This document shows, in pieces, positions 10,865 through 29,097 of a stretch of 64,000 nt of DNA; positions within the stretch are counted from its first letter, which is position 1; the number at the start of each line of letters is the position of its first letter. The notes beneath the pieces were generated by a model. That model ran no database searches. It saw only the letters and a program-made list of their open reading frames with translations, and was not told the origin of the DNA. This stretch comes from Comamonadaceae bacterium (GTDB lineage: Bacteria; Pseudomonadota; Gammaproteobacteria; Burkholderiales; Burkholderiaceae_C), in the NCBI GenBank assembly GCA_947455145.1, contig CANGME010000011.1, positions 60,182 through 124,181 on the forward strand, read 5' to 3'. The translations under genes were made by a program, and so were the position numbers.

Positions 10865-11188
10865 TCAGCCGAACTTCTCTAGCAAGCGGGTGGAGCGCTC
10901 AACCTCGCTGATGGCTTGTGCATCATCTTTGGAGTCGTACACCGCCTCCATGAGTGAGCAAGCCATCATCCGGTAGAAGGCCTTGTCCATCGCTTTGCGG
11001 GCGGCCGACATCTGCAAGGCGATGTCTTCACAGGAGCGTCCGCCCTGAATCATCTCGACCAGGCCGCGCACTTGCCCTTCAATCCGGCGCAAGCGGTTGA
11101 CCACATCTTTTTGATGGTCAGCCCGAAAGGTTGATGAGTTTGTTGGATTTTCGGCGACGGTTTTTGGGTTTTTGCTTGCCATAGACAT
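10865..11188 (-). CDS. CsoR/RcnR/FrmR-family (DUF156) transcriptional repressor, two-Cys His-less variant (CstR-like?)
   Basis: 107 aa with the family core RLRRIEGQVRGLVEMI. The only Cys residues are C53 (GRSCEDI) and C77 (RMMACSL). R73 sits where Cu(I)-CsoR has its His ligand. Confidence 0.8.
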   Translation of the reverse strand: MSMASKNPKTVAENPTNSSTFRADHQKDVVNRLRRIEGQVRGLVEMIQGGRSCEDIALQMSAARKAMDKAFYRMMACSLMEAVYDSKDDAQAISEVERSTRLLEKFG

Positions 11189-11278: not shown

Positions 11279-11413
11279 AAAGCACCTATACCGCAGTTCA
11301 TGCGCATATGGGAATATTCAAATACTTACAGTGCTCATTTGCCTGCTGTTACCCGCATCACTCTATGCGCCGATAGAGACATTTTTTTGAACAAGGAATT
11401 GAACGTGAAAATT

Positions 11414-11977
11414 ATGACTAAATACCTGCTTTGGCTGCCCCTGTTGGGCGCTGTTTTTTTGACCGGTTGCGGCACCATCAGCACGCTAGGCAAGCTGGAG
11501 GATGGTGCTGGCACCGAGGCCAGCAAAATGTGGGACCGCTGGGTGGACAGTGGCGGCGACATCGCTGTGGCCACCACATGGGAGCGCAAGGTCAAGGATG
11601 GCGTGACCGTCAATGACATTGAGCAGGTGTTTACTCAGATTGCCGCTGAGAAGAACATGAAAGGCGTGGGCGAGTTGCCCTTGTCCCAGGAGCTGGCCGC
11701 CCGCACCGGCAAGCCGCAAAAATTTCTCAAGGTCTATTCTTTCTGCACCCCGGCCACGGCACGGATCATGGTCGATTTCAGCCCGCACATGGCGGCCTAT
11801 CTGCCCTGCCGTTTGACCGTGGTGGAGAAGGAGGACGGCCTGTGGATCTACACGCTCAATATGGACATGATGGTGAAGATGGGGCGCAAGTTACCATCGC
11901 CACTGAAGGAAGAGGCCATGAAGGTACGCGACACGATCTATGAAATGCTGGACCGTGGTGCCAAGGGGGAATTTTGA
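11414..11977 (+). CDS. DUF302-family lipoprotein
   Basis: The track ORF 11300-11977 is trimmed to the ATG at 11414. Lipoprotein signal MTKYLLWLPLLGAVFLTGC. The C-terminal part (VYSFCTPATARIMVDFSPHMAAYLPCRLTVVEKEDGLWIYTLN) matches the DUF302 pattern from memory. Confidence 0.7.
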   Translation: MTKYLLWLPLLGAVFLTGCGTISTLGKLEDGAGTEASKMWDRWVDSGGDIAVATTWERKVKDGVTVNDIEQVFTQIAAEKNMKGVGELPLSQELAARTGKPQKFLKVYSFCTPATARIMVDFSPHMAAYLPCRLTVVEKEDGLWIYTLNMDMMVKMGRKLPSPLKEEAMKVRDTIYEMLDRGAKGEF

Positions 11978-12033
11978 GTGCGGGGTGAGTTGATGGTCTT
12001 TGGAAGTTATTAAATTTATTACAGGAGTTTTTT

Positions 12034-13290
12034 GTGAATAATAGTAAAGCGTTTCGTTTGGCGGCCATTGCGGCCGTGATCTCCGGCCCGTTAACTGCAG
12101 CAATGGCCACTGATGGCTATTTTTCGCACGGCTACGGCATGAAGGCCAAAGGCATGGGCGGCGCATCGGCTGCGATGACCGACAACGCTTTTGCCGGCGC
12201 CAACAATCCGGCGGCAGCGGCTTGGGCAGGCAACAGGCTGGAGGTGGGGTTGGATCTGTTTTCGCCAGAGCGCTCTATGGACCGCGCCGGACTGGGCAGC
12301 ACTAAAAGCGACAGCAATCTTTTTTACATCCCCGAGTTTGGCTACAACAAGGCTATTAGCAACAAGCTAGGCGTTGGCATCACGGTGTATGGCAATGGGG
12401 GCATGAATACCGATTACCCAGCGGGGCGGATTCCTGCTAATGGATGCGGGCCTGGTGCGCCTGCATCCAATCTGTTTTGCGGCTCAGGTCGTTTGGGCGT
12501 TGACTTGACGCAATTGATCATTGCGCCAACAGCCGCCTACAAAGTAAGTGATAGCCATTCCTTCGGTGTTTCCCCTTTGATCGTGCAGCAGCAGTTCAAA
12601 GCGGAAGGCCTCGGTGCTTTCGCGGGTCAATCTCAGAACGGTGCGGCATTAACTAACAATGGCTACGACACCAGCAGCGGCTTTGGTGTTCGCTTGGGCT
12701 ATCTGGGCAAGATTAGCAACCAGCTGAGCATCGGTGCTTCATATGCGCCCAAGATTTCCATGTCCAAATTCTCCAAATATGCAGGGCTGTTTGCTGAAGG
12801 CGGCGGCTTTGACATTCCGGAAACCTACACCGTCGGTGCCAGTTTTATGGCTGCATCAAATGTGACCTTGGCCTTGGATTACCAACGCATCAATTACGGT
12901 GATGTGAAGTCAATTGCGAATCCAAGCGCCGGTTTGGGCGGACCACTGGGTGCGGCCAACGGTCCTGGATTTGGTTGGGCCAGCATTAACGTCTGGAAAC
13001 TGGGTGCTCAATGGCAGGCTATGCCTAATTTGACGCTGCGCGCGGGTGTCAATGTGGGAGACAATCCAATCAAGAGCGCAGATGCATCGTTCAATACGTT
13101 GGCACCTGGTGTGATAACGACGCATTACACCTTGGGCGGCACCTATGCCTTGTCCAAAGAGCTTGATATGACTGTCGCTTACATGTACGCGCCGTCTAAC
13201 TCGGTGACAGGTCCCAACCAGGGCGGCTCTACGGACGCCATCAAAATGTCCCAACAATCCCTGGGCATTCAACTCGGCTGGCATTGGTAA
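12034..13290 (+). CDS. FadL/TodX/OmpP1-family outer-membrane channel
   Basis: 418 aa. Signal peptide ending AAMA. N-terminal hatch-like DGYFSHGYGMKAKGMGGAS. Alternating beta-strand pattern with a C-terminal aromatic residue (GWHW). Confidence 0.75.
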   Translation: MNNSKAFRLAAIAAVISGPLTAAMATDGYFSHGYGMKAKGMGGASAAMTDNAFAGANNPAAAAWAGNRLEVGLDLFSPERSMDRAGLGSTKSDSNLFYIPEFGYNKAISNKLGVGITVYGNGGMNTDYPAGRIPANGCGPGAPASNLFCGSGRLGVDLTQLIIAPTAAYKVSDSHSFGVSPLIVQQQFKAEGLGAFAGQSQNGAALTNNGYDTSSGFGVRLGYLGKISNQLSIGASYAPKISMSKFSKYAGLFAEGGGFDIPETYTVGASFMAASNVTLALDYQRINYGDVKSIANPSAGLGGPLGAANGPGFGWASINVWKLGAQWQAMPNLTLRAGVNVGDNPIKSADASFNTLAPGVITTHYTLGGTYALSKELDMTVAYMYAPSNSVTGPNQGGSTDAIKMSQQSLGIQLGWHW

Positions 13291-13330
13291 GCTGATGGGC
13301 CAGCAAGTCTGGCTTCAGGCTTAAAGTCCA

Positions 13331-13364
13331 AAAAGGGCCGAATCTCTGATTCGGCCCTTTTTTT
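13331..13364 (+). terminator. Rho-independent terminator
   Basis: Perfect 10-bp stem GGGCCGAATC/GATTCGGCCC, 3-nt loop, T7 tail. It lies 41 nt after the porin stop. Confidence 0.8.
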
Positions 13365-13432
13365 GATATTTGCAATAACTTTCGTGCAGAGATCGCTTGC
13401 ATACCCAGATTGTTTTAACTAGTCTTACGAGC

Positions 13433-13747
13433 ATGAAAAAACTGATATTTCTCCTGTCCCTAGTTGCTGCCTCGGTCAGTGCCCAGGTGCCTGCCTTTTA
13501 TAAAGAGGCTGATCTCAAGCTTGGCGAGAAGCTGATGATCGATAGCAAGTGCGCCGCCTGTCACCAGCAGAAGGTGGGGGGCGACGGCAGTGCCATATAC
13601 AGGCCCTTGGGTCGAGTCAACACCTCAAGCGCATTGCTCAGCATGGTCGAACGGTGCTCAACCGAACTCAATCTGGGACTCTTCCCGGAGGATGTCGCCT
13701 CGGTAGCTGCGGTACTGAACCGAGATCACTACCGCTTTACCAAATAG
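13433..13747 (+). CDS. Small exported mono-haem c-type cytochrome-like protein
   Basis: Track ORF trimmed to the ATG at 13433. Signal peptide MKKLIFLLSLVAASVSAQ. A single CAACH haem-binding motif. It vaguely resembles DUF1924-type proteins from memory. Confidence 0.55.
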   Translation: MKKLIFLLSLVAASVSAQVPAFYKEADLKLGEKLMIDSKCAACHQQKVGGDGSAIYRPLGRVNTSSALLSMVERCSTELNLGLFPEDVASVAAVLNRDHYRFTK

Positions 13748-13762
13748 TGAACCAGTGGCGGG

Positions 13763-14746
13763 TTACTTAGCCCGTGACACAGATTCCATCGGGCGCTTTT
13801 CTTGAGCCCATTGGTGCATAGAGCCGTCGTACAGCTTGGTTTGCTTGTTGCCCAGCACTTCAGACATCACAAACCAGGTGCCTGAAGCTTGATGGCCGGT
13901 GTTGCAGTAGGCGATGGTGTTGGCTTGGGGGTCGGCGCCACTCATCTTGAATATGTCGCGGTACGTGTCGCTGGTCATCAACCGGGCTGCATCACCGCCT
14001 TGGCTTGACATCAAGGTGGTGGGCACGTTTTTGGCACCTTGTAGGTGGCCATAGGCACTGACTGAGCCCGGCTTGCTCAGGCCCAGAAACGTGGCGTTGT
14101 CGCGCGCGTCGATCAGTTGCGATTTGGCATTGAGCGCTTTTTCCACGTCGTCCGATGTCGCCATCAGCTCGGCGCTGCGGTCGGCTTTGGCAGCCCACGT
14201 TCCCTCACCCGCCTTGACGGGTGCGGTGCTCACATCGCGCCCCTCGCCAATCCAACCTGCCGTGCCGCCATTGAGCACGGCAATGTTGTCCTCGCCGTAC
14301 ACTTTGAATTGCCAGTATAGGCGCGCGGCATCGTTGAAATCAATCGGCTCCATACCGGCAGACACGATCACCACGGGGCGATTGGCTTGGACGCCCCAGG
14401 ACCGCACCAGCTTTTCAAAGTCTGCACGTTCGGGAAGCATGCCGCTGAGTTTGAGGCCATTGATGACGCGTTCGACCCGCACCTTTTTGTTGTCCACCGG
14501 CACCGCATCCGCAATGTGGCCGCCCAGTTCGACCAGAAATTTCTTGCCGGTTTTTTTGTCGGTCTCGAATTCAGGCGTAAGCGTGAACGATTTTTGATTT
14601 GAGCGCACATCGAGTACGGTGACTTCGGCCCGGTTCTTGGCCAGCCACTCACCATCGACGACAGGGCCGGGTACTTGAAGGGCCAGAGCCCACTGGGTCA
14701 GGCCGAGCAGGGCGGCGCCTGCGATATATCGAATCTGCATTTTCAT
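13763..14746 (-). CDS. Periplasmic tandem-rhodanese sulfurtransferase
   Basis: 327 aa. Signal peptide ...LTQWALA. Active-site loop YCNTGHQASG in the C-terminal rhodanese domain. Confidence 0.85.
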   Translation of the reverse strand: MKMQIRYIAGAALLGLTQWALALQVPGPVVDGEWLAKNRAEVTVLDVRSNQKSFTLTPEFETDKKTGKKFLVELGGHIADAVPVDNKKVRVERVINGLKLSGMLPERADFEKLVRSWGVQANRPVVIVSAGMEPIDFNDAARLYWQFKVYGEDNIAVLNGGTAGWIGEGRDVSTAPVKAGEGTWAAKADRSAELMATSDDVEKALNAKSQLIDARDNATFLGLSKPGSVSAYGHLQGAKNVPTTLMSSQGGDAARLMTSDTYRDIFKMSGADPQANTIAYCNTGHQASGTWFVMSEVLGNKQTKLYDGSMHQWAQEKRPMESVSRAK

Positions 14747-15411
14747 GAGGAACTCCTAGATTGAGGTGAAGATGAAACCGGAGCCACAAGTTGCAGGGCA
14801 TCTTGCGGCCAATGAATGAATTTTGAACACCAGACCGCGACCCGGCGGTCGGCCCAGGCCTGTTGGCTGCTGAGGCTGTGACGCGTGCAATAGTGGGCTA
14901 GAGCTTCGTCCCGTTCCAGTAGTAGCTGGCGCAAGTCCTCGGCATAGAAGCGAACCATGTCGGCCAGCCACAGCGCCGCACCAGCCAGCGGCCCGCGTAA
15001 GTTCAATTCGATGGCCTGCAGCTTGCGCGTCAGCGGGTCGGCGTCCATCCAACGTTCGCCAGTGACCCACTGGTTGGGGGCAAACCAGCGCAGAGGAATC
15101 CCTTTGCTGTCCAGGGATAGACCTGTCAGGTGAGACAGTCTGCCTTGAGGGTCGCGTCGGAACAAATGAATATGTCCATGCTCTTGGTTGAGTGGTGCAG
15201 GGGCGCTCTCAGCCGGGTCGTGCGCATGAAAGTAGAACTGCCAATGACCTGTGCTATCCATGGCGTCGTGACGCGGATAATGTTGCCAGATTTCAAAACG
15301 ACGACTGCGCCCGATAAAGGGATGCAGCAGCGAGCGGCCCTGCTGTGCCAAGCGCAATTGACGCCCCAGCGCGCTGCGGGCAGCGTCTTCACGCGAAACG
15401 AGTGTGCTCAC
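14743..15411 (-). CDS. Hypothetical cytoplasmic His-rich protein
   Basis: 222 aa with a GTG start and no signal peptide. Motifs HWQFYFHAH and EHGHIHLF. 4-nt overlap with the rhodanese start. I cannot name a family. Confidence 0.6.
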   Translation of the reverse strand: MSTLVSREDAARSALGRQLRLAQQGRSLLHPFIGRSRRFEIWQHYPRHDAMDSTGHWQFYFHAHDPAESAPAPLNQEHGHIHLFRRDPQGRLSHLTGLSLDSKGIPLRWFAPNQWVTGERWMDADPLTRKLQAIELNLRGPLAGAALWLADMVRFYAEDLRQLLLERDEALAHYCTRHSLSSQQAWADRRVAVWCSKFIHWPQDALQLVAPVSSSPQSRSSS

Positions 15412-15450
15412 TGGGTGCGTTGATCTGGAGTCGATTGGTCTTAGGGCACT

Positions 15451-15753
15451 TTACCGGGTCTTGCCCGCACAAGGGTTGTCACCACCGCTTCTACGGCGTG
15501 ACTTGCCCGCGCAAGGGTTATTGGATTCGTCCCCACCCGAGCGCTTGCGGCTACCGGCACAGGGGTTGCCCGCACAAGGGTTGTCGCTGCGGTTGCGGCG
15601 TTTGGTTGCGGCGCAGGGGTTGCCAGCGGCACAGGGTGCTGCGGTTTTGGCGGGCGCGTCAGCGGCCAGTGCTTGGGGCGCGACGGGTACGGTCAAGAGG
15701 GTCATGGCCAGTGCGGATACCAGCGAACCGAGATGCTTGCGAGAATTTTTCAA
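15451..15753 (-). CDS. Secreted (N/A)PCA-repeat cysteine-rich basic mini-protein
   Basis: 100 aa. TTG start with a GGAG RBS 7 nt upstream. Signal peptide MKNSRKHLGSLVSALAMTLLTVPVAPQALA. The mature part is APCAAGNPCAA..NPCAGNPCAG..NPCAG..NPCAG separated by R/K/S/G spacers. It is co-directional with the operon. Confidence 0.6.
   Translation of the reverse strand: MKNSRKHLGSLVSALAMTLLTVPVAPQALAADAPAKTAAPCAAGNPCAATKRRNRSDNPCAGNPCAGSRKRSGGDESNNPCAGKSRRRSGGDNPCAGKTR
15463..15640. repeat. Six imperfect copies of GC[AG]CA[AG]GG[GT]T (coding repeat of the mini-protein)
   Basis: Read directly, e.g. gcccgcacaagggttg, gcccgcgcaagggtta, ggcacaggggttgcccgcacaagggttg, gcgcaggggttgccagcggcacagggtg. Confidence 0.8.
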
Positions 15754-15806
15754 GTTTCAACTCCAGAGAAAAAACGGATGTGATTGTGATGAGTAAAGCG
15801 CAGCCA

Positions 15807-16385
15807 TCAGGCTAGGGCGCTTTGTCGCGCCCTGCGCTCAAACCAGCCACCCAGATAGAACACGCCAACAGCAGCGGCGACCAGCACGGCTAACACCATC
15901 CATTCGGGCACGCCGAGCAGCTCAGGCAGGCGGTCGCCTTTGGTCAATTCGCCCGCAGTCGTGAGCGGCTCCAGCATAGGGAACAGGCTGGCAAAGGCAA
16001 AGGTGCCGATCAGGATGCCCACTAAAAACACCAATGCATCAATGCGACCAGTCATCACACCGACCGCTGATGTCCCCGGGCAGTAGCCCCCGACGGCAAA
16101 GCCAGCGCCAATCAATACGCCACCAGCGGCCACCGCCCACATGTAAGGAATGGGCACATAGATCGAGGCGGGATCGACCCAGCCTGCCAGCTCTAACACG
16201 TAGATGCCGACAGCGGCAAAAACAATCGCGGTGAACATGACTTTGAACACCGACCAATCAGTCAACCGGAATTGAGCGGTGAGCTTGCAACCACTACCAA
16301 ACCCAGCACGCTCCAGCACAAAGCCAAACCCCAAACCCAACAACAAGCCCACGACGGGACCACTCGCAGTCATCAGACCGTTCAT
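15807..16385 (-). CDS. YeeE/YedE-family half-transporter (PmpB-like)
   Basis: 192 aa, polytopic. Motifs ERAGFGSGCK and GGYCPGTS are typical of YeeE/YedE sulfur-compound transporters. Confidence 0.85.
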   Translation of the reverse strand: MNGLMTASGPVVGLLLGLGFGFVLERAGFGSGCKLTAQFRLTDWSVFKVMFTAIVFAAVGIYVLELAGWVDPASIYVPIPYMWAVAAGGVLIGAGFAVGGYCPGTSAVGVMTGRIDALVFLVGILIGTFAFASLFPMLEPLTTAGELTKGDRLPELLGVPEWMVLAVLVAAAVGVFYLGGWFERRARQSALA

Positions 16386-16915
16386 TTCACACCTCCACCC
16401 GTCAGTCGCGAAACAATCAATCCGGATACAAAAAATGCACCCAAAAATACGAAACCTGCGACGCCCAAGACGGCAGAGCCTGACAAACCAAGTCCACTGG
16501 TACAGCCAGCGGCAATGCGAGCCCCAAACCCTGCAAAAATGCCTCCTGCCAGTGCCTTTAACAAACGCCCAGTCCGCCCCGAGGAGCTGGCCCCCTCAAT
16601 CCGCAAGGCCATGCGCCCGGCCAGTGCCGCTGATATCAAAGCGCCGATGAACACACCCACTACCTGCCAGCTGATCCAGGAAGACAAAACCGAGCCACCT
16701 TCCAACATTGGCCCCAGGTAGTCGTTTGAGGCGGTCCATCCGGGCACAGTTGCGTCACCCAGCCACGCGCTCAGACGGGTGGTGAAACCGGTCGCGCCCA
16801 AACCGTGGCCGGTCAAAACAAAGGTCAATAACAACACCACGCCGAGCGATAGCCCGGCCACTAACGACGACCAATAGGGCTGACGGGGGATTTCACATTC
16901 ATTCAAAATCTTCAT
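16382..16915 (-). CDS. YeeE/YedE-family half-transporter (PmpA-like)
   Basis: 177 aa, polytopic. Conserved AAGCTSG motif. 4-nt overlap with the next half. Confidence 0.85.
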   Translation of the reverse strand: MKILNECEIPRQPYWSSLVAGLSLGVVLLLTFVLTGHGLGATGFTTRLSAWLGDATVPGWTASNDYLGPMLEGGSVLSSWISWQVVGVFIGALISAALAGRMALRIEGASSSGRTGRLLKALAGGIFAGFGARIAAGCTSGLGLSGSAVLGVAGFVFLGAFFVSGLIVSRLTGGGVK

Positions 16916-16942
16916 TTTTTCACCTGGTTTTCAATGGTCGTT

Positions 16943-17434
16943 TCAACTTGATAGTTTTTTGATTGCCGCACGTGCCTGGAGTAATCGCTCGTCCAAATAG
17001 GCACCGTAAAAGTCGGGTATGTATCCGCCCACCATGCGCGCAGCAATCTCCTGCCCGCCTTGGCCAAAGAACAGCACGGTGGGTGCCACCTTGACGCCCC
17101 AAGCACGCCGCATGTCGTCATGGCTCAGGCTGGCTCCGCTGAAGTTCTTCAAAATACGGGTGCTACGCATGTCCACTTGGACGATCGGTAAGCCCTGCTG
17201 CTCGTGCAGCGGACCCAAATAGTTCTCTCTCGCAATCTTGCAAAACGGGCATCCGTCCAGGCTGATCATCACTACCAGGGGCTGTTGCTTTTTCAATGCG
17301 AGTGCCAACTCATCTTGCAAAGAGAGCGCCAAAGGCAGGCTGGCTGGCGCGGCGAATGCTAAGCCACTGGCATAAACACCCGCCGTGGCTGCAAACAATT
17401 GACGTCGTGAAAGTAGTAGGGTCGAAGACATCAC
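16943..17434 (-). CDS. Tat-exported thioredoxin-fold protein (SoxS/SoxW-like)
   Basis: 163 aa. Twin-arginine signal LLSRRQLFAATAG...AFA. Redox motif CPFC. Confidence 0.75.
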   Translation of the reverse strand: MMSSTLLLSRRQLFAATAGVYASGLAFAAPASLPLALSLQDELALALKKQQPLVVMISLDGCPFCKIARENYLGPLHEQQGLPIVQVDMRSTRILKNFSGASLSHDDMRRAWGVKVAPTVLFFGQGGQEIAARMVGGYIPDFYGAYLDERLLQARAAIKKLSS

Positions 17435-18390
17435 CGGGTCTCCTGCTCCATCAGGATGTAGGTGTTGTAGGCATTCATGCGGTTGGCCACCTTGAACAAC
17501 GGCAAATGCTCAAAAGGTGTCCAGTCGGTTGCGGCATAGGCTTCCTCGAAGGGGTCCATATTTTTGGCCGCGCGTTCCATGGCGGCGCGAAGATAGACCA
17601 GATAGTCGCGGGTGAGTTGCATGTCCTTGCGCGCTTCTTCGGAAAATGGACCATGGCCTGGCACGATGATTTGAGCATCAAACGCGAGCAGTTGCTCCAA
17701 GGCTGCAATCCAATGCCTGCTGTCGGCCTGCCCAACATAGGGGATGCGGCTACGAAACACCAGATCGCCTGCAAAGAGTACTTTTTCCTGGGGCAGATAG
17801 ATGACCAAGTCTTCGGGCGTGTGCGATGGCCCCACCGGTTTGATTTTGAAAACAATGCCACCCACAGTTAAATCCTTGGGGCCATCAATCCATTCATCGG
17901 CTTGCACCAGATGGGTGTCGGCATTCACCCAGGGTGCGAGGTCTTTTCTTGATACTTCCAGCCGCAACCGCGCCGTTTCTGAGTTGAGGTATTCACGGGC
18001 TGCCTGGTGGGCCACGATGCGGGCGCCTAGGGCCTTGAACGTCTGAAGGCCATAAACGTGATCGGCGTGGTAATGCGTCACGATGACGTGGGTGATGGGT
18101 AGCGGCGTGACCTTGTGAATCTCCTCCACAAGCCGGGATGCCAATGCAGGTGAACCCAGGGCGTCAATCACGACCACACCGGTTTGGGTCACCACAAAGC
18201 CGGCATTCGAGATGAAATTTTGGTTGGCCGGTGACCCCAGCGCGGAGACGCCTTCCACATACCAGGCCGAAGCCGACACCTTTTTCGCCACCATGGCAGG
18301 CGCATCTTCGGCGCAGGCCAAGGAGGCACTCAAGACGGCCAACGATGCAAGGATGCAGCGCTGCCAAAAATTATTCCTGATCACTGTCAT
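17431..18390 (-). CDS. Exported metallo-beta-lactamase-fold hydrolase (SoxH-like)
   Basis: HxHxDH motif THYHADHVYG. Signal peptide MTVIRNNFWQRCILASLAVLSASLACA. ATG at 18390 is preferred (GGGGAAG RBS) over the track GTG at 18435. Confidence 0.8.
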   Translation of the reverse strand: MTVIRNNFWQRCILASLAVLSASLACAEDAPAMVAKKVSASAWYVEGVSALGSPANQNFISNAGFVVTQTGVVVIDALGSPALASRLVEEIHKVTPLPITHVIVTHYHADHVYGLQTFKALGARIVAHQAAREYLNSETARLRLEVSRKDLAPWVNADTHLVQADEWIDGPKDLTVGGIVFKIKPVGPSHTPEDLVIYLPQEKVLFAGDLVFRSRIPYVGQADSRHWIAALEQLLAFDAQIIVPGHGPFSEEARKDMQLTRDYLVYLRAAMERAAKNMDPFEEAYAATDWTPFEHLPLFKVANRMNAYNTYILMEQETR

Positions 18391-18453
18391 ACAGCTTCCC
18401 CGCAGACTGAATGTGCCACTTTCGCGCAGTGACACTCATTACAAATAAAAAAT

Positions 18454-18487
18454 TTGGGTAGAACGAACATGAAGCTTTTCTGCCCAA
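18454..18487. promoter_or_regulatory. Inverted repeat in a divergent promoter region (candidate operator)
   Basis: TTGGGTAGAA-N14-TTCTGCCCAA (10-nt arms, one mismatch) between the MBL-led operon and the full-length yeeE/yedE gene. Confidence 0.3.
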
Positions 18488-18526
18488 CTTAACAACTTGG
18501 CGCTAATATAAGCTATTGTTGAATTA

Positions 18527-19639
18527 ATGAGAAGCCACATGGATCTGTCAAGTATTCTTGAGCGCTATGGAAATAGTGCGGTTCTGGCCTTGGGCGGGCT
18601 GGTCATCGGTTTTTTGTTCGGTTTTTTGGCCCAACGTTCAAAGTTCTGCCTGCGGGCTGCCGTTATCGAATTTTGGCATCGCAAATTTGGTGAAAAGCTC
18701 TCCGTGTGGTTGCTTGCGTTTTCCAGTGCGGTGGTTGGGGTTCAACTCCTCATCTTGATGCATTCGCTGGATGTCGGTGCAGCACGCCAGATTGCTGCAC
18801 GCGGCAGCCTCTCGGGCGCGTTGATCGGTGGCCTGCTGTTTGGCGCTGGCATGATCATGACGCGGGGTTGCGCCAGCCGTTTGCTGGTTTTGTCAGCCAA
18901 TGGCAATTTGCGAGCGCTGCTGTCTGGGCTGATTTTTGCCGTTACGGCACAAGCGGCACTCTCAGGCGGACTGGCACCTCTGCGCAGCACCATCAGTGCG
19001 TGGTGGACCGTCGAGGGCGGCCCATCGCGTGATCTGCTGGCCATTGCTGGCGTCGGCCACTGGGGTGGGCTCCTGGCTGGACTGGTCTGGTTCGTGGCGG
19101 CTCTGTTTTTTTCCATTCGAAGTGGTGGCGGATTCTGGAAATGGGTGGGCGGCATCGGTACGGGTCTGACGATTGCTGCAGGTTGGTGGTACACCTACCA
19201 AGTCTCGTCCAGTTCGTTCGATGTTGTGCAGGTTCAGGGGTTGACCTTCAGCGGCCCGTCCGCAGAGTGGCTGATGCGTGTGCTGGCGGCGACAAGCCCC
19301 GTGATCGGTTTTGATTTTGGACTGCTGCCGGGTGTGTTTGTTGGCTCCTTCATGGGAGCCTGGTTCGGCAAGGAGCTGAAACTTGAAGGCTTCAATGACG
19401 GCTACAGCATGCGACGCTATATCGGAGGTGCTATCTTGATGGGGTTTGGGTCGATGCTGGCAGGCGGCTGCGCCGTTGGCGCTGGCATGAGTGGTGGATC
19501 TGTTTTTGCGCTGACGGCGTGGATGGCACTCGTTGGCATGTGGGTTGGTGCTGGCATCACTGACCGGTTGATGGACAGTGCGACCTCTAGTTACGAGAAC
19601 CGCGTCAAAGGCTCCATTGCCAACATGAAAGCGCCTTGA
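18527..19639 (+). CDS. Full-length YeeE/YedE-family sulfur-compound transporter
   Basis: 370 aa, polytopic. Conserved Cys motifs SKFCLRAA, TRGCASR, AGGCAVGAG. The start could instead be the ATG at 18539. Confidence 0.85.
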   Translation: MRSHMDLSSILERYGNSAVLALGGLVIGFLFGFLAQRSKFCLRAAVIEFWHRKFGEKLSVWLLAFSSAVVGVQLLILMHSLDVGAARQIAARGSLSGALIGGLLFGAGMIMTRGCASRLLVLSANGNLRALLSGLIFAVTAQAALSGGLAPLRSTISAWWTVEGGPSRDLLAIAGVGHWGGLLAGLVWFVAALFFSIRSGGGFWKWVGGIGTGLTIAAGWWYTYQVSSSSFDVVQVQGLTFSGPSAEWLMRVLAATSPVIGFDFGLLPGVFVGSFMGAWFGKELKLEGFNDGYSMRRYIGGAILMGFGSMLAGGCAVGAGMSGGSVFALTAWMALVGMWVGAGITDRLMDSATSSYENRVKGSIANMKAP

Positions 19640-19747
19640 TCCGCGTTGACAGAGGCGGTAATTAGGGTTTTTGCTAGGTGTTTTTTTTTGTAATGTAAGT
19701 ACATTCGCATTCAGTTATGTTTTGTAGCCATTTGAAAGGGTATCCAC

Positions 19748-20065
19748 ATGCGAATTAACTATCGGCTCCCAGCCATGTTGCTGTTGGCATTGGCCGCAGG
19801 CCATGCCACGGCCCAAAGTGCGACCACATTAAACGTACGTAGCTTGGCCGCGACTTGCGCCACTTGTCACGGCACAGAGGGACGTTCGGTCAACGGTTCT
19901 GCGATCGTGGGGCTGGCCGGTATGCCGCGTGACTACATGCTGACGCAGTTCAAGGCATTCAAGGATGGCAGCCGCCCTGCGACCGTGATGCATCAACTGG
20001 CCAAAGGCTATACCGAGCAACAGCTCGATGCCTTGGCCACCTATTTTTCTACCTTGAAGCGCTAA
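19748..20065 (+). CDS. fccA: Flavocytochrome c sulfide dehydrogenase, mono-haem cytochrome subunit
   Basis: 105 aa. Signal peptide. One CATCH motif. It lies immediately upstream of the flavoprotein subunit. Confidence 0.75.
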   Translation: MRINYRLPAMLLLALAAGHATAQSATTLNVRSLAATCATCHGTEGRSVNGSAIVGLAGMPRDYMLTQFKAFKDGSRPATVMHQLAKGYTEQQLDALATYFSTLKR

Positions 20066-20078
20066 GCAGGAGCTCACC

Positions 20079-21359
20079 ATGATGAAAAGACGCAGTTTTG
20101 TAGGTGCATCCCTCACCCTGGGTACCCTGGGCAGCCTCGTGGGTTGTGCAAGCACGGGCACTATTCCTTCCAAAGCCAAAGTGGTGGTGATCGGCGGCGG
20201 CTACGGCGGAGCCACGGCCGCCAAATATGTGCGGATGTTGTCGGATTACAAGATCGACGTGGTGTTGGTCGAGCCCAACGCCAGTTTTATCTCGTGCCCC
20301 ATTTCCAATCTGGTGATCGGCGGCTCCAAGACCATGGGGGACATTACAACCCCCTATGACAATCTGGGCGGCAAACACGGCGTGACCCTGGTCAGAGACA
20401 TGGTGAGCAGCATCGATTCAAACAAGAAAACCGTCACGCTGTCGGGCGGCGCAACCATCGGCTATGACAAGCTGATCGTCTCGCCCGGCATTGACATGAT
20501 GTGGGGCAGCGTAGAAGGTCTGCAGGCCGCCAACGCTTCAGGTCAGATCCTGCACGCATGGAAGGCCGGGGCTGAAACCATTGCCCTGCGTAAACAGCTC
20601 GAAGCCATGCCTGATGGTGGTGTGTACGCCCTGTCCATCCCGCTGGCCCCTTACCGCTGCCCGCCCGGCCCTTATGAGCGCGCCAGCCAAGTGGCCTCTT
20701 ACTTTAAGCAATTCAAGCCCAAATCCAAAGTGCTGATTCTGGACGCCAACCCGGATGTGACGTCCAAAGGGCCGTTGTTCAAAAAATTCTGGGCTGACAA
20801 CTACAAAGGCATGTTGGAGTATCACGGCGGCCACAAGGCGATTGCCGTAGACGCCAAGACCAATACAGTGAAGTTCGAAGTGCAAGACGACGTCAAGGCA
20901 AACGTGCTTAATGTGTTGCCCAATATGAGTGCCGGTGCCATCGCCGTGCGATCCGGTCTGGCCAACGCTAACGCTCGTTGGTGCAATGTGAACTACTTGA
21001 CGTTTGAATCCACCGTTGCCAAGGATTTGCACGTCATTGGAGACTCGGTGTTGGCTGCGCCGCTAATGCCCAAGTCGGGTCATATGGCTAACTCGCAGGG
21101 CAAAGTGGTGGCGGCCGCTGTGGTGGCGCAGCTCTCAGGTATTGAAGTCAACCCGAACCCTGTGTTGACCAACACTTGCTACAGTTTTGTCAACGACAAA
21201 TTGGTCGTGCACGTGGCCTCAGTTCACCAGTATGTGGCGGCTGAGAAAACCTTCAAGGCCGTGGCGGGTTCGGGGGGGGTGTCGCCTGGCCCAACCGAGC
21301 TGGAAGGTGCATACGCCATGAGTTGGGCACACAACATCTGGGCGGACACTCTCTCTTAA
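20079..21359 (+). CDS. fccB: Flavocytochrome c sulfide dehydrogenase flavoprotein subunit (FccB/SoxF)
   Basis: 426 aa. Tat signal MMKRRSFVGASL. Rossmann motif VVVIGGGYGGATAAKY. FCSD-like CPISNLV. Confidence 0.9.
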   Translation: MMKRRSFVGASLTLGTLGSLVGCASTGTIPSKAKVVVIGGGYGGATAAKYVRMLSDYKIDVVLVEPNASFISCPISNLVIGGSKTMGDITTPYDNLGGKHGVTLVRDMVSSIDSNKKTVTLSGGATIGYDKLIVSPGIDMMWGSVEGLQAANASGQILHAWKAGAETIALRKQLEAMPDGGVYALSIPLAPYRCPPGPYERASQVASYFKQFKPKSKVLILDANPDVTSKGPLFKKFWADNYKGMLEYHGGHKAIAVDAKTNTVKFEVQDDVKANVLNVLPNMSAGAIAVRSGLANANARWCNVNYLTFESTVAKDLHVIGDSVLAAPLMPKSGHMANSQGKVVAAAVVAQLSGIEVNPNPVLTNTCYSFVNDKLVVHVASVHQYVAAEKTFKAVAGSGGVSPGPTELEGAYAMSWAHNIWADTLS

Positions 21360-21410
21360 CTCTTGCAGCCTGGTTAAATTGCTTAAATTCCACAAATCTT
21401 AGGAGCGGCC

Positions 21411-21824
21411 ATGCTTAAATTTTTATTGGCAGTGCTGCTGATTTGTGGGACGGGCTTGGCTGCGGCCCAGAACGTGAAGGCGGTCTACCACATCAACACC
21501 GATGTGGACACCGTCTCAGCGGTTCTGGGCAACATACGCAACCATCTCAGCGAAGACCCCAAGGCCAAGATAGTGGTGGTCGCGCATGGTCCGGGGATTA
21601 ACTTTCTGTTGCAAGACGCCAAGGATTCACGCGGCCGTGAATTCAGTGGCCCGGTCAGTGACCTGGTCAGCAACGGCGTTGACTTCAGGGTGTGCAACAA
21701 CACATTGACGAGTATGGATATCAACCCGAACCGCTTGCTGATGGAGGCCAGCGTCGTACCATCTGGCGTGGCCGAGATTGCGCGCCTTCAAGCCAAAGAG
21801 GGCTTTGTTTATCTCAAGCCTTGA
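21411..21824 (+). CDS. Exported DsrE/DsrF-like (COG1416-type) protein
   Basis: 137 aa. Signal peptide MLKFLLAVLLICGTGLAAAQ. Pattern VVVAHGPGINFL...FRVCNNTL...VPSGVAEI is typical of the DsrE-like family from memory. Confidence 0.65.
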   Translation: MLKFLLAVLLICGTGLAAAQNVKAVYHINTDVDTVSAVLGNIRNHLSEDPKAKIVVVAHGPGINFLLQDAKDSRGREFSGPVSDLVSNGVDFRVCNNTLTSMDINPNRLLMEASVVPSGVAEIARLQAKEGFVYLKP

Positions 21825-21854
21825 AAAAGCGTGGGCCGCTAGAGGGAGCAGACT

Positions 21855-22199
21855 TCATTCGGAATCCAAGTTGCCATCAATGGCAATTTGCGTGCAGACC
21901 GTGCGGCACAGATTGGCTACTCGTTCGTTAATGATGCGGTAGTGAATTTGCACGCCTTCGCGGCGCTTGCCCAGCACGCCAGCCTGGTACAGCGTGGTGA
22001 GGTGCTGCGACATATTGGGCTGGGTGGTGTCAATCTTGCTGAGCAAGTAGCTCACGTTCTTTTCTCCATCGCACAGGCAACTGATGATCTTCAGCCGCAT
22101 CGGTGCTGACATGACCCGAAACACTTCTGCGGCCAGTTCGAACACCTGATCGGGCTCAGTCACTTCTTTCGACGACTTCTGGATTGATCTGTTGACCAT
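21855..22199 (-). CDS. soxR: ArsR/SmtB-family repressor (SoxR; SqrR/BigR-like Cys pattern)
   Basis: 114 aa. wHTH region VSYLLSKIDTTQPNMSQHLTTLYQAGVL. Cys at 41/43 and 98/102. Divergent from soxC. Confidence 0.8.
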   Translation of the reverse strand: MVNRSIQKSSKEVTEPDQVFELAAEVFRVMSAPMRLKIISCLCDGEKNVSYLLSKIDTTQPNMSQHLTTLYQAGVLGKRREGVQIHYRIINERVANLCRTVCTQIAIDGNLDSE

Positions 22200-22278
22200 G
22201 GCAGTTCAGTTTTAGAGGGGATAGAGCGTTCATTTTAGGGCCTGCATGGGAAGGCCCTCATTTGATGACTGAATGGTG

Positions 22279-22304
22279 ATGCACTAGTGAAAACCCTAGT
22301 GCAT
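22279..22304. promoter_or_regulatory. Perfect palindrome ATGCACTAG-N8-CTAGTGCAT (candidate SoxR operator)
   Basis: Read directly in the AT-rich soxR-soxC spacer. 9-bp arms with no mismatch. Confidence 0.4.
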
Positions 22305-22382
22305 ATAAATAATTAAAACGTTATATTCGCCATTAACGATATTGAAACGCTTCGGCATGCCTCAAATTTTGAAGGAGATTGT

Positions 22383-23750
22383 GTGATGCAAGATGAATTG
22401 AGCTCGGGCCGCGTCCGCAAGGCCCCCGAGAGTTTTTTGGACAAAGCTGGCATTAAGACCGTGTTTGCAGAGGCGCGGCACGGTCGCCGTGACTTCATTC
22501 GCAGCGCGTTTGCTGCTGCCGCTGCCGGTGCTGCGGTGCCTGCCGCACTGGCGCAGGCTAACCCGGTGCCCAACGAGGGCGGTGACCCCAATATTTTGAA
22601 CCTGCCAGAGCACAGCAAGGGCTTGGGTCAGGGCGTGGCAGCGAATGATGGCTATGGCAAGCCCTCAAAATATGAAGCCAATGTGCAGCGCCGCCAGAGC
22701 CCCGGTCTGACCCAGACCACCCAGGCTTCGGTGTCGTTCGCGCCGTTGCAGTCCTTGTTTGGCATCATCACCCCGAGCGGCCTTCACTTTGAGCGACATC
22801 ACCAAGGCTGGTGGGATATTGACCCTTCCAAGCATCGCTTGATGATTAACGGCATGGTCAAGGCCAACAAGGTGTTTACGCTGGACGAGATCATGCGACT
22901 CCCGTCAGTCTCGCGCTTTCACTTCATTGAGTGCGGTGCCAACACGGCGGTGGATTGGGGCAACGTAGCGGTGCCAACGGTTCAATACACGCACGGCATG
23001 GTGTCGTGCAGCGAGTTCACAGGCGTTCCGCTGATCACGCTGCTGGAGCTGGCGGGCGCGGATTTGAAGAATGGAAAATTTGTGCTGGCCGAGGGCGCAG
23101 ACGGTTCTTCCATGACCCGCACCATTCCCATGGATCTCATCAAGTCGGGCGAGGTCTTCGTGGCCTATGGCCAGAACGGCGAAATGTTGCGCCCTGAGCA
23201 GGGTTATCCATTGCGACTTATCGTGCCAGGTGTGCAGGGTGTGAGCTGGGTCAAGTACCTGCGCCGCCTTGAGGTGGGGGACCAGCCCTACGCGGCCAAG
23301 GATGAGGCCGTTCACTACATTGATTTACAGCCCGGCGGTTTGCATCGGCAGTACACCAGCATTCAGGAATGCAAAAGCGTTGTCACCACGCCTTCTGGTG
23401 GGCAGGTGCTGCTGGACAAAGGTTTCTACAACATTACTGGTCTGGCTTGGTCGGGTCGGGGTAAGGTGAAGCGAGTGGATGTGTCCGTGGATGGTGGGCG
23501 CAATTGGCGCACAGCGCGTCTTGAAGGCACGGTGCAAACCAAGTCGTTGACGCGCTTTAACCTTGACTGGGTGTGGGACGGCAAGCCCGCCATCATTCAG
23601 AGCCGTGCCATGGATGACACGGGTTATGTGCAGCCCACCTACCAACAATTGCGTACCGTGCGCGGTACACGTTCGATCTATCACAACAATGCCATCCAGT
23701 CGTGGTTGGTTGGCGAGTCCGGCGAGGTGAAAAATGTTCAGGTTTCGTAA
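22383..23750 (+). CDS. soxC: Sulfane dehydrogenase molybdopterin subunit SoxC
   Basis: 455 aa. Tat signal GRRDFIRSAFAAAAAG. Sulfite-oxidase-family Moco and dimerisation domains. The start is GTG 22383 or ATG 22386, after GGAG at 22374-22377. Confidence 0.92.
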   Translation: MMQDELSSGRVRKAPESFLDKAGIKTVFAEARHGRRDFIRSAFAAAAAGAAVPAALAQANPVPNEGGDPNILNLPEHSKGLGQGVAANDGYGKPSKYEANVQRRQSPGLTQTTQASVSFAPLQSLFGIITPSGLHFERHHQGWWDIDPSKHRLMINGMVKANKVFTLDEIMRLPSVSRFHFIECGANTAVDWGNVAVPTVQYTHGMVSCSEFTGVPLITLLELAGADLKNGKFVLAEGADGSSMTRTIPMDLIKSGEVFVAYGQNGEMLRPEQGYPLRLIVPGVQGVSWVKYLRRLEVGDQPYAAKDEAVHYIDLQPGGLHRQYTSIQECKSVVTTPSGGQVLLDKGFYNITGLAWSGRGKVKRVDVSVDGGRNWRTARLEGTVQTKSLTRFNLDWVWDGKPAIIQSRAMDDTGYVQPTYQQLRTVRGTRSIYHNNAIQSWLVGESGEVKNVQVS

Positions 23751-24864
23751 AACTCTTCTCAGCGCAGCTCTACTCGCATTTGCCGGTCTTGCTCTTGCAC
23801 AAAGCGGCGGCAAATACCCTGGCGTGGGGCGCGATGCCACACCCAAGGAGGTCGCAGCTTGGGACATCGATGTTCGACCAGACTTCAAGGGTTTGCCTGC
23901 CGGTTCAGGGAGTGTGGCCAAAGGTCAGGACGTGTGGGAGAGCAAGTGCGCCAGCTGCCACGGCATCTTCGGCGAGTCGGGTGAGGTGTTTAGCCCCTTG
24001 GTGGGTGGCACCACGGCAGATGACATCAAGACGGGTCGTGTGGCCAATTTGAATACGACCACATACCCGGGTCGCACCACCTTGATGAAGGTCTCCACCC
24101 TCTCCACACTGTGGGACTACATCAACCGCGCCATGCCTTGGACGGCCCCAAAATCACTGAGCACTGATGAGGTGTATGCAGTGACGGCCTTTTTGCTGAA
24201 CCTTGGCAACATCTTGCCTGATGACTTTGTGCTGTCGGACAAAAACATCGCCGAAGTACAAAAGCGCATGCCCAACCGCAACGGCATGACCACTCAGCAC
24301 GCCCTGTGGCCGGGCAATGAGTTTGGTGCGGGCAAGATTAAGCCCGACACGAAAAACGTGGCCTGCATGAAGGACTGCGTGGCCGAGGCTAAAGTGGCTT
24401 CTTTCTTGCCGGACTATGCCCGTAATGCCCACGGCAACCTGGCCGAGCAGAACCGTCTGGTGGGTGCGCAGCACGGCGCGGACACGACCCGCCCCGAAGC
24501 CAAGCTGGGCGCTGTGGCGCCGTCACCGGTCACTGCTGTTCCTGCTGCGGCACAGAAGCCAGCTCCCGCTAGCAAGCCTGCCAACGCACCCAAGGCCGAA
24601 TCCTCGGGCGTTGACGGAAATGCAGCACTGGCCATGGCACAGAAATACAGCTGCACCGCTTGCCATGGTGTTGATAAGAAGATTGTTGGCCCCAGCTTCC
24701 AAGAAATAGGCAAGAAGCATGCGGGCAAGGTGGACTACCTGGCAGGCAAAATTAAGTCCGGTGGCAGTGGTGTCTGGGGTCCGATTCCCATGCCAGCACA
24801 GGCCCTGGGTGACACCGATGCCAAAACACTGGCGGCTTGGCTGGCTGCTGGTGCAGGAAAATAG
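23734..24864 (+). CDS. soxD: Di-haem cytochrome c SoxD
   Basis: 376 aa. Signal peptide. CASCH and CTACH motifs. Overlaps the soxC end. Ala/Pro linker before the C-terminal c8-like domain. Confidence 0.85.
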   Translation: MFRFRKTLLSAALLAFAGLALAQSGGKYPGVGRDATPKEVAAWDIDVRPDFKGLPAGSGSVAKGQDVWESKCASCHGIFGESGEVFSPLVGGTTADDIKTGRVANLNTTTYPGRTTLMKVSTLSTLWDYINRAMPWTAPKSLSTDEVYAVTAFLLNLGNILPDDFVLSDKNIAEVQKRMPNRNGMTTQHALWPGNEFGAGKIKPDTKNVACMKDCVAEAKVASFLPDYARNAHGNLAEQNRLVGAQHGADTTRPEAKLGAVAPSPVTAVPAAAQKPAPASKPANAPKAESSGVDGNAALAMAQKYSCTACHGVDKKIVGPSFQEIGKKHAGKVDYLAGKIKSGGSGVWGPIPMPAQALGDTDAKTLAAWLAAGAGK

Positions 24865-24926
24865 GGGAACTACGCATTCAGGGTCTGTTTTTTTTCATTA
24901 CCATGTTCTTAATTTAGGAGATATTT

Positions 24927-25385: not shown

Positions 25386-25433
25386 TCGGCAGCACCCCCC
25401 CCATCGTTTCAACACAGATTTAGGAGTATCAAA

Positions 25434-25745: not shown

Positions 25746-25802
25746 CCTCATAGTGACCCGGTGCGTGACTTTGCAGCTAGTTCAGAGAACAAAGGTGACA
25801 TC

Positions 25803-26606: not shown

Positions 26607-26620
26607 TCGAGGAGACTTCA

Positions 26621-27271: not shown

Positions 27272-27276
27272 CATCC

Positions 27277-27303
27277 AAAACCCGGCGGGGCCGGGTTTTT
27301 TTT
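27277..27303 (+). terminator. Rho-independent terminator/attenuator between soxX and soxB
   Basis: Stem CCCGGC/GCCGGG with a GGG loop, followed by T8. It starts 6 nt after the soxX stop. Confidence 0.75.
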
Positions 27304-27341
27304 GTTTCATAAATATCAGTAAACACTTAATTGAGTGAGCC

Positions 27342-29075: not shown

Positions 29076-29097
29076 GGTTGCGAACTACAGCACCGTC

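Follow-up and report, generated by a model that had tools for sequence, protein, structure and literature searches.

The locus examined here raises the question of what a short, cysteine-rich open reading frame (ORF) is doing between the genes of a sulfur channel and that of a rhodanese, and whether it is a gene at all. It lies at 15451-15753 in a 64,000-nucleotide stretch of DNA from a Comamonadaceae bacterium, the whole of which is called the window below. A sequence-only reading of this DNA had described the ORF as a secreted, basic mini-protein built from cysteine repeats, in operon position between the YeeE/YedE halves and the His-rich/rhodanese genes, embedded among sulfur-trafficking genes and outside any named family, and this description is borne out by our analysis. 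We find, moreover, that the gene is part of a five-gene cassette undescribed so far (split sulfur channel, peptide, DUF6969 protein and exported rhodanese), and the make-up of this cassette suggests that the peptide may be a carrier of sulfane sulfur.

The gene, its translation signal and the ORF that mirrors it on the opposite strand are as follows.

15451..15753, minus strand: NPC-repeat peptide gene, 100 amino acids (aa), with a TTG start at 15751-15753 and a stop at 15451-15453 (ORF list and sequence)
15761..15764, minus strand: Shine-Dalgarno sequence GGAG, 7 nucleotides (nt) ahead of the TTG start (read from the sequence)
15404-15796, plus strand: antisense ORF of 130 aa with 'LPAQG' repeats, mirroring the NPCAG gene in the wobble-matched frame

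The ORF translates as MKNSRKHLGSLVSALAMTLLTVPVAPQALA (aa 1-30) followed by ADAPAKTAAPCAAGNPCAATKRRNRSDNPCAGNPCAGSRKRSGGDESNNPCAGKSRRRSGGDNPCAGKTR (the remainder), which is the translation quoted in the sequence-only reading, and its ribosome-binding site (RBS) is also where that reading had placed it. When the window is taken together with related loci, an ATG stands at the position of the window's TTG in 28 of 29 gene copies ('MK...'), and GGAG, GAGG or AGGA is found 4-16 nt upstream of the start in 24 of the 29. A search of 5.8 billion proteins returned 26 protein clusters which share the architecture of the peptide at 44-99% identity and in which the product is a called gene. Codon-level conservation, proposed earlier as the check on the minus-strand frame, was analysed with the gene from 28 related loci and the window, giving 27 distinct DNA sequences. 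Among these orthologues the mean pairwise differences at codon positions 1, 2 and 3 were 0.19, 0.15 and 0.40, and the median ratio of nonsynonymous to synonymous substitution rates (dN/dS) was 0.25 over the whole gene (mature part 0.20, signal peptide 0.36). The sense frame gave the lowest value of all, and dN/dS exceeded 1.5 in all four out-of-phase frames. The wobble-matched antisense frame gave 0.33; dN/dS alone cannot separate these two frames, and the decision therefore falls to stop codons, start, RBS and signal peptide. The antisense frame gains stop codons in two of the loci (L022 and L041) and is without a conserved start, and the indels among the orthologues are whole repeat units.

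A chance frame, an antisense mirror or a Cys-codon-rich regulatory leader, none of them a functional protein, could be argued for from the antisense frames that are also open in this GC-rich DNA (15404-15796, plus strand) and from the antisense dN/dS just given. Such an origin is very improbable in view of the low sense dN/dS and the antisense stops, of the conserved ATG, RBS, signal peptide and AxA site, of the whole-unit indels, and of the called gene in 26 clusters. A Cys-rich attenuation leader was rejected on length and export signal, 100 aa with such a signal being unlike attenuation leaders. An antisense ORF such as the LPAQG one is to be expected as an artefact where DNA is GC-rich. 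The frame on the minus strand really does code for a protein and is under purifying selection. Directly 5' of the AGGAG RBS lies a T-run (TTTTTT; 15765-15776 in the window) that is kept in about 25 homologous loci, and a GC-rich hairpin overlaps the stop codon of the neighbouring YeeE half B gene in the window; this region may be a translation enhancer or a processing/attenuation element.

The peptide itself can be divided as follows.

15664..15753, minus strand: general secretory (Sec)-type signal peptide, aa 1-30, MKNSRKHLGSLVSALAMTLLTVPVAPQALA, predicted to be cut after A-L-A (hydropathy, helix prediction, homologue conservation)
15454..15663, minus strand: mature peptide, aa 31-100, polybasic, with six Cys and predicted disorder (composition, AlphaFold2)
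15607..15639, minus strand: first Cys pair APCAA-G-NPCAA (Cys41 and Cys47, spacing 6; translation)
15553..15582, minus strand: second Cys pair NPCAG-NPCAG (Cys60 and Cys65, spacing 5; translation)
15505..15519, minus strand: single NPCAG (Cys81) between the basic linkers SRKRSGGDESN and KSRRRSGGD (translation)
15463..15477, minus strand: C-terminal NPCAG (Cys95), followed by KTR and the stop (translation)

In line with the earlier assignment, all three regions of a Sec signal can be recognised at the N-terminus: the n-region is basic, the stretch of about 19 residues that follows is hydrophobic (hydropathy peak at residues 8-26), and A-L-A stands before the cut. The sole helix predicted by AlphaFold2, at residues 8-20, falls inside this segment, a signal peptide with an AxA-like c-region is kept in all homologues, and neither a twin-arginine motif nor a lipobox is present in the N-terminal sequence. 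The mature 70 aa are built solely from A, C, D, E, G, K, N, P, R, S and T, with no L, I, V, F, W, Y or M, and have a net charge of +8.7 and an isoelectric point of 10.0. In the window peptide this region is predicted to be disordered, with a predicted local distance difference test score (pLDDT) of about 50 and no secondary structure. The six Cys occupy residues 41, 47, 60, 65, 81 and 95 (spacings 6, 13, 5, 16 and 14). The sequence-only reading was right about the mature length, the lack of a hydrophobic core and the number of Cys, and went too far in giving each Cys the same context, which is NPCAG in four cases, NPCAA in one and APCAA in one. Pro precedes every one of the six, an arrangement reproduced by none of 200,000 shuffles of the mature sequence. 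The six DNA copies of GC[AG]CA[AG]GG[GT]T counted earlier have to be corrected to five, all within 15467-15620 and with none elsewhere in the 64 kb. No tandem array was detected at the DNA level in the window copy with Tandem Repeats Finder, the repeats being at the level of the protein motif; some Hylemonella copies, unlike the window copy, have 54-nt periodic units. Judged from its sequence, the product has a mass of about 7 kDa, is exported by Sec, and is both polybasic and intrinsically disordered. An antimicrobial cationic peptide was considered and rejected, there being no hydrophobic residue, and a sulfur-globule protein was rejected on composition.

The same plan recurs, with variation, in a table of 76 distinct peptides from all fetched loci. 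These have 3-8 Cys, mostly 6-7, with Asn two residues before the Cys in 91% and Pro directly before it in 97%, and with small residues after it (A, G or S, then G, P or A). The Cys-Cys spacing is bimodal, 5-6 within pairs (NPCxxNPC) and 12-16 over the polybasic linkers, the net charge is +5 to +12, and hydrophobic residues make up 0.6% of the mature regions. A divergent clade has the sequence NPCGPSNPCGP-KKKKKK-x-NPCGPANPCAPKK, and one peptide (P0050) has three Cys only. In one Hylemonella subgroup (L001, L009, L011, L020, L030, L033, L038, L039 and L044) the last NPCAG has become (T/A)P(E/D)A(G/D), followed by KKSR, the decayed units including TPEAG and APDAD, and the final Cys is therefore dispensable there; the number of units drifts by gain and loss of 18-aa (54-nt) repeats. 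The constants of the family, as far as these sequences indicate, appear to be export, disorder, strong positive charge and several N-P-C units mostly in close pairs.

An exhaustive hidden Markov model (HMM) search of 1.84 billion representative proteins gave 40 matches at E<=1e-3 and 11 at E<=1e-10, the latter all of the basic-linker type; with so few matches, the family is narrow. Its named sources are Hylemonella, Curvibacter, Rhodoferax, Tibeticola and Polaromonas, of which Hylemonella and Tibeticola were looked up and are Comamonadaceae. Closest to the window is a Hylemonella metagenome-assembled genome (L042; 90% peptide identity, same flanks), and cultured carriers include Curvibacter delicatus NBRC 14919 (L010) and Rhodoferax sp. 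BAB1. The peptide had no match in Pfam or NCBIfam even at E<=10, and PDB sequence searches with the peptide and DUF6969 profiles returned nothing meaningful (the top match was a mite allergen at E 0.73). Literature searches for DUF6969, NPCAG, NPCA repeats and 'Cys-every-fifth'/CefA found nothing relevant, and we found neither a paper nor a family model that covers the peptide.

The genes around the peptide gene are more informative about its role. The other four members of the cassette and two accessory genes lie in the window as follows.

16382..16915, minus strand: YeeE/YedE half A, 177 aa (PF04143, Sulf_transp, 7e-18; positions 176-308 of the 310 in the profile, the C-terminal half)
15807..16385, minus strand: YeeE/YedE half B, 192 aa (PF04143, 1.5e-15; positions 2-150 of 310, the N-terminal half)
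14743..15411, minus strand: DUF6969 protein, 222 aa (Pfam PF22308, 1e-45), starting 39 nt past the peptide stop
13763..14746, minus strand: two-domain rhodanese with a predicted signal peptide, 327 aa (PF00581 in two stretches; active-site loop CNTGHQA)
16943..17434, minus strand: accessory thioredoxin-like protein with a predicted twin-arginine translocation (Tat) signal, SRRQLF, and CPFC (PF13098, 1.3e-5, just under the cut-off)
17431..18435, minus strand: accessory, predicted exported SoxH-like metallo-beta-lactamase-fold (MBL) hydrolase (PF00753, 7e-28; best NCBIfam match TIGR04559, SoxH_rel_PQQ_2, below the cut-off)

On the minus strand the order is MBL, thioredoxin, YeeE half A, half B, peptide, DUF6969 and rhodanese, with 4-nt overlaps or short gaps: the end of half A overlaps the start of half B by 4 nt, half B ends 53 nt before the peptide start, and the rhodanese start overlaps the DUF6969 stop by 4 nt. 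Related loci were collected by scanning the DNA of 185,579 species genomes for NPCAGNPCAG, by a scan of metagenome contigs with the DUF6969 profile, which is blind to the peptide and independent of the first scan, and by look-ups of individual peptides. In 109 loci holding DUF6969, tabulated with their gene neighbours as the earlier reading had proposed and counted where there was enough flanking sequence, an ORF with a signal peptide, NPC repeats and polybasic segments is directly upstream of DUF6969 in 97/97, both YeeE halves are upstream on the same strand in 77/77, and the rhodanese is directly downstream in 83/83; these loci are drawn from one bacterial order, and the counts are not phylogenetically independent. 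The cassette keeps its order also in loci whose DUF6969 shares only 35-45% identity with the window copy, among them loci with divergent peptide forms. In some loci (L004, L075 and L113) the cassette lies among unrelated housekeeping genes, away from sox genes, and it is therefore a self-contained unit. The co-conservation of the peptide with DUF6969 (97/97) had escaped the sequence-only reading, as had the NPCA repeats of other phyla described below.

The thioredoxin is upstream in 41/56 loci and the MBL in 37/56, and both are accessory to the invariant core. Set against a core that does not vary, these counts weaken the earlier suggestion in which the Tat-thioredoxin and the MBL hydrolase would maintain the peptide as their substrate. 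A FadL-like outer-membrane protein and a small cytochrome c were likewise tried as core members and rejected, being within 4 kb in 9/48 and 6/48 loci only. In one locus the thioredoxin gene and that of YeeE half A are separated by an additional gene of about 1.3 kb (L045:3816-5147, plus strand), which is absent from the window and, judged by eye, apparently encodes the conserved signalling motif of methyl-accepting chemotaxis proteins; an equally large gap occurs at this site in L012, L054, L057, L058, L060, L073, L074, L079, L082 and L107.

The channel halves have relatives with established or proposed roles in sulfur transport. PmpA and PmpB are proposed to form a YeeE-like heterodimer (PMC11582611), and the split YedE1E2 of Cupriavidus has been shown by experiment to import zero-valent sulfur via conserved Cys (PMC10812762). 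A periplasmic carrier and a thioredoxin feeding a YeeE-type importer have been proposed for SoxYZ/SoxT1A (PMC11582611), and YeeE needs a dedicated soluble partner, YeeD (PMC11073785). The N-terminus of the rhodanese looks like a signal peptide in all three copies read, those of the window, L075 and the divergent L113, and the protein is therefore predicted to share the periplasm with the peptide. Its NCBIfam matches, to 3-mercaptopyruvate sulfurtransferase (3-MST) and ExtH, are below the cut-off, and YeeE half A has a weak sub-threshold match to the selenium-related YedE/FdhT.

DUF6969 is a Pfam domain of unknown function without literature, for which this analysis gives a first functional context. 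The protein has no signal peptide. Its AlphaFold2 model, which is confident (pLDDT 83, predicted template modelling score 0.83), has a five-stranded sheet and helices, and a Foldseek comparison with the PDB gave no fold assignment (best E 0.19); the DUF6969 profile likewise found no relative among PDB sequences. The cupin fold to which an HxH...EHGHxH pattern had pointed is unsupported by Foldseek. In a deep alignment the invariant residues include H44, P46, D49, H62, H64, E77, H80 and H82 and an NxWVTG motif, and the best 120 of 962 profile matches, looked through for remote relatives, were all close. In the secondary-structure topology of the model, the HxH pairs lie at adjoining ends of neighbouring strands, and the cluster of His, Glu and Asp is likely to be a metal site.

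This arrangement could also be that of a ribosomally synthesised and post-translationally modified peptide (RiPP), DUF6969 being a cytoplasmic metalloenzyme that modifies the Cys of the NPC units before Sec export, as the MNIO (oxidative enzymes that depend on multinuclear non-haem iron) do on bufferin precursors. The product would be a periplasmic metallophore or a redox-active or sulfur-binding peptide, and the polybasic linkers could be the recognition or cleavage sites of a multi-core precursor. The peptide gene is directly upstream of DUF6969 in all 97 loci (gaps of 9-129 nt; abutting or overlapping in L002 and L004), and the pair is kept down to 35% DUF6969 identity even though the motif changes. 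The signal-less DUF6969 could meet the peptide only before export, the repeated N-P-C-small-small unit resembles an enzyme recognition site, and the invariant H44, H62, H64, E77, H80, H82 and D49 on neighbouring strands suggest a metal site in a protein with no PDB fold match. There is precedent in RiPP precursors with a Sec signal and modified Cys (PMC11626156). However, co-conservation is as strong for every one of the five cassette genes, so the peptide-DUF6969 pair is not marked out by its adjacency, and in the window DUF6969 is translationally coupled by its 4-nt overlap to the rhodanese and not to the peptide. No protease, RiPP recognition element (RRE)-like domain or other RiPP hallmark is found among the annotated neighbours, the CefA model has no match in the peptide even at E<=10, and the NPCA motif is widespread in four phyla without DUF6969 and so not dictated by it. 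We regard modification by DUF6969 as unlikely overall, and slightly less likely again the stronger version in which this fold-novel protein makes a new class of ribosomal natural product coupled to a YeeE-type channel and rhodanese.

The repeats just referred to were found by pattern scan and HMM search. They are pure tandem NPCA[AG] runs without basic linkers, with Cys at every fifth residue, in secreted proteins and lipoproteins of cyanobacteria, Planctomycetota, Myxococcota and Gemmatimonadota. The arms are N- or C-terminal (loci L006-L053, proteins P0038-P0062); examples are encoded, all on the minus strand, at L017:1548-2719, L019:1845-2642, L014:4282-4872 and L048:6322-7590. These loci hold no DUF6969, YeeE halves or rhodanese, and the occurrence of the motif without DUF6969 argues that the N-P-C unit has its own function and is not merely a DUF6969 recognition site. 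No Pfam model matched the repeat, and the NCBIfam model CefA (NF038108) matches sub-threshold only. The repeats are fused to cytochrome c of SoxA/TsdA type (PF21342; P0038, P0046 and P0047 above the gathering score), to thioredoxin and DUF5666 domains, to a 'YHS domain-containing (seleno)protein' (NF041384, 164 bits) and to a weak cupredoxin-like region (E 0.04). SoxA-type haem domains join thiosulfate to a carrier cysteine; the NPCA-fused cytochrome aligns poorly with the SoxA of the window, and we claim no shared axial Cys. By these domain assignments the fusion partners belong mostly to thiol/sulfur redox chemistry, and it is likely that the NPCA repeat provides secreted redox proteins in several phyla with an arm of reactive thiols. 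A gene at L019:774-1766 (minus strand), the direct neighbour of the one for the cyanobacterial NPC-repeat/YHS (seleno)protein, has by eye a CxxxCxxC motif (CNLACTHC) of radical S-adenosylmethionine (SAM) type.

The same fusions bear on the possibility of a soft-metal or metalloid buffer, which the sequence-only reading had also put forward. The Cys pairs would then chelate Cu(I), Hg(II), Cd(II) or As(III), or selenite as a selenotrisulfide, and would protect a sulfur-oxidising periplasm or deliver selenium to the YedE-type channel. Multiple thiols on a flexible chain with bimodal Cys pairs are compatible with this, and so are a CsoR/RcnR-family regulator near the cassette in the window and in L134, the YHS and weak cupredoxin-like fusions, and the weak sub-threshold matches of YeeE half A and the rhodanese to YedE/FdhT and ExtH. 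YHS domains are often called metal-binding, but the YHS partner here belongs to the (seleno)protein family NF041384, a name that points to a redox-active residue over a plain metal site, and the selenium-family matches are far below their cut-offs. The peptide has no CxC or CxxC, and Cys is about 9% of its mature part. Its charge of about +9 disfavours cations and favours anionic thiosulfate, polysulfide and selenite. In the neighbourhoods that were annotated, no gene for metal resistance (pump, chaperone or oxidase) is seen repeatedly, and each of the four invariant partners is either a sulfur-trafficking protein or of unknown function. Metal buffering appears quite improbable.

We propose instead that the peptide is a multivalent thiol acceptor and donor of sulfane sulfur, which works with the rhodanese to feed a split YedE1E2-type importer. 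This carrier function, already the first suggestion of the sequence-only reading, fits the evidence best and yet is put forward tentatively, our confidence in it falling a little short of probable. It is favoured because the peptide's fellow members in the cassette include an exported rhodanese and a split channel, and because NPCA arms are elsewhere fused to thiol/sulfur redox modules. What the analysis shows is a real gene under purifying selection, the architecture of its product, the invariance of the cassette and the predicted location of each part; the chemical steps, the direction of transport and the part given to DUF6969 are those that we infer. The Asn-Pro-Cys thiolates would take up sulfane sulfur as persulfide or polysulfide, their pKa probably being lowered by neighbouring Arg and Lys, while the positive charge would, by general thiol chemistry, attract anionic thiosulfate or polysulfide. 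The sulfur could come from direct nucleophilic attack on S0 or polysulfide, or from the exported rhodanese loading the arms from thiosulfate or polysulfide. The flexible arms would then hand sulfur to the heterodimeric split YeeE/YedE channel, through which zero-valent sulfur would enter the cytoplasm, to be received or processed there by the signal-less, probably metal-binding DUF6969. Where it is present, the Tat-exported CPFC thioredoxin might keep the arms reduced, as SoxS does for SoxY.

Several points weigh against a carrier function. SoxYZ is already present in the same organism, so that a second carrier needs a separate role. C175 of DUF6969, the sole Cys conserved among close relatives, is lost in the divergent clade; with no invariant Cys this protein is not a persulfide relay of TusA type, and its place in the proposed mechanism is a guess. 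The strict Asn-Pro before Cys would equally fit recognition by a modifying enzyme, and the YHS and weak cupredoxin-like fusions leave room for metal chemistry. The Cys pairs spaced by 5-6 might also just form disulfides in an oxidising periplasm, the reducing thioredoxin being encoded in only 41/56 loci. The probability left after the readings considered here belongs to functions not yet thought of.

The wider surroundings of the cassette in the window form a sulfur island.

18527-19639: divergent full-length YeeE, flanking the cassette
19748-21359: FccAB
Beside the cassette, within the island: DsrE-like gene
21855-22199: BigR-like ArsR regulator
22383-29075: SoxCD, SoxY, SoxA, SoxX and SoxB, a full sox set
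24927-25385: genuine SoxY (PF13501, 7.8e-34)

Two further genes were noted in the window. A regulator of the CsoR/RcnR/FrmR family with two Cys about 24 residues apart (10865-11188, minus strand; also at L134:6849-7151) scores below threshold to RicR, FrmR and RcnR and stands beside DUF302 and a FadL/TodX-like outer-membrane protein. A TehB-like SAM methyltransferase (29251-29871, plus strand), just past soxB, might bear on a selenium/tellurium reading.

How sulfane or zero-valent sulfur is solubilised and presented to channels of the YeeE/YedE/SoxT type has been called poorly understood (PMC11582611). The cassette offers compact and genetically tractable candidates for this step: a periplasmic thiol polymer, an exported rhodanese, a split channel and a conserved cytoplasmic protein to which no fold could be assigned. 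To the known thiol-based relays of sulfur around importers of YeeE type, two uncharacterised components are added here. If the proposed function is true, it would make the peptide the first sulfur carrier that is both disordered and multivalent, a genetically encoded substitute for periplasmic glutathione.

It is useful to compare the peptide with the known systems to which it bears some likeness. In each of SoxY, bufferin/MNIO precursors, CefA and metallothionein, a defining feature was looked for and is lacking in the peptide, which by its sequence belongs to none of them. Like SoxYZ with SoxS, it is predicted to be periplasmic and to bear, on a flexible segment that has to extend into partner enzymes, Cys set in a conserved motif of small residues, is encoded amid sulfur-oxidation genes, and often has a periplasmic thioredoxin and a SoxH-like MBL encoded alongside; SoxYZ too is proposed to pass sulfane sulfur to a YeeE-type importer (PMC11582611). 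SoxY, however, has the PF13501 fold, a single C-terminal Cys in GGCGG, SoxZ as partner and a Tat signal, whereas the peptide has no fold, 3-8 Cys in N-P-C units, polybasic linkers and a Sec signal. No SoxY domain was matched in the peptide with Pfam or NCBIfam, and in place of a single C-terminal GGCGG it has six internal [NA]PCA[AG] and ends in ...NPCAGKTR. The peptide may thus work like SoxY though built quite differently.

In the cassette, half A matches the C-terminal and half B the N-terminal part of YeeE, which is the pmpA-pmpB order (PMC11582611). As in YedE1E2 and PmpAB, they are two adjacent half-size genes, of 177 and 192 aa in the cassette against about 130 aa for PmpAB. Import of zero-valent sulfur was shown for Cupriavidus YedE1E2 only (PMC10812762), and the cassette halves are assigned by profile. 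The known importers, split YedE1E2/PmpAB and full-length YeeE(TsuA)-YeeD(TsuB) or SoxT, have a cytoplasmic TusA-like partner (YeeD/PmpC) or a persulfide dioxygenase (PDO); an exported rhodanese, an exported peptide with Cys repeats or DUF6969 has been described for none of them.

Bufferin and oxazolin precursors resemble the peptide in being small (80-120 aa), in containing Cys and a Sec signal, in having as gene neighbour a putative metalloenzyme that is His-rich and cytoplasmic, and in the periplasmic site of action of the product (PMC11626156). The peptide shares with bufferin precursors the Sec signal (PMC11626156) and the conserved Cys. Neither MNIO (DUF692) nor DUF2063 was found in the window genes scanned (11300-29871) or in the called genes of L001, L002, L004, L134 and L136, and DUF6969 is unrelated to MNIO by Pfam and fold search. 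Bufferins are, moreover, predicted to fold as small proteins and have a copper context, whereas the peptide is predicted to be disordered and has a sulfur context.

CefA (NF038108) needs a Cys at every fifth residue, unlike the spacings of 6, 13, 5, 16 and 14 in the window. The tandem NPCA proteins score up to 27.9 bits against its cut-off of 30, and the window peptide, full or mature, gives no match at E<=10. The tandem proteins share with the window peptide the NPCA[AG] unit and its two close pairs; the peptide differs from them in its polybasic linkers and its tie to the cassette.

Sud of Wolinella and PspE and YnjE of E. coli are exported rhodanese-type proteins of periplasmic sulfane or polysulfide transfer, with basic residues near the active Cys and a single catalytic Cys; we know of no dedicated multi-Cys peptide partner for them. 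Metallothioneins and phytochelatins are short, Cys-rich and mostly unstructured, but they are cytoplasmic, have CxC, CxxC or (gamma-EC)n and far more Cys, and are not polybasic, and to our knowledge they are not linked to YeeE or rhodanese genes. The peptide lacks the CxC, CxxC or CC clusters and the high Cys content that define metallothioneins, having 6 Cys in 70 residues. It is best placed in a family of NPC-repeat peptides of its own, with which it shares the signal peptide, a hydrophobic-free polybasic region with at least three N-P-C, and a gene between YeeE half B and DUF6969 with the rhodanese next.

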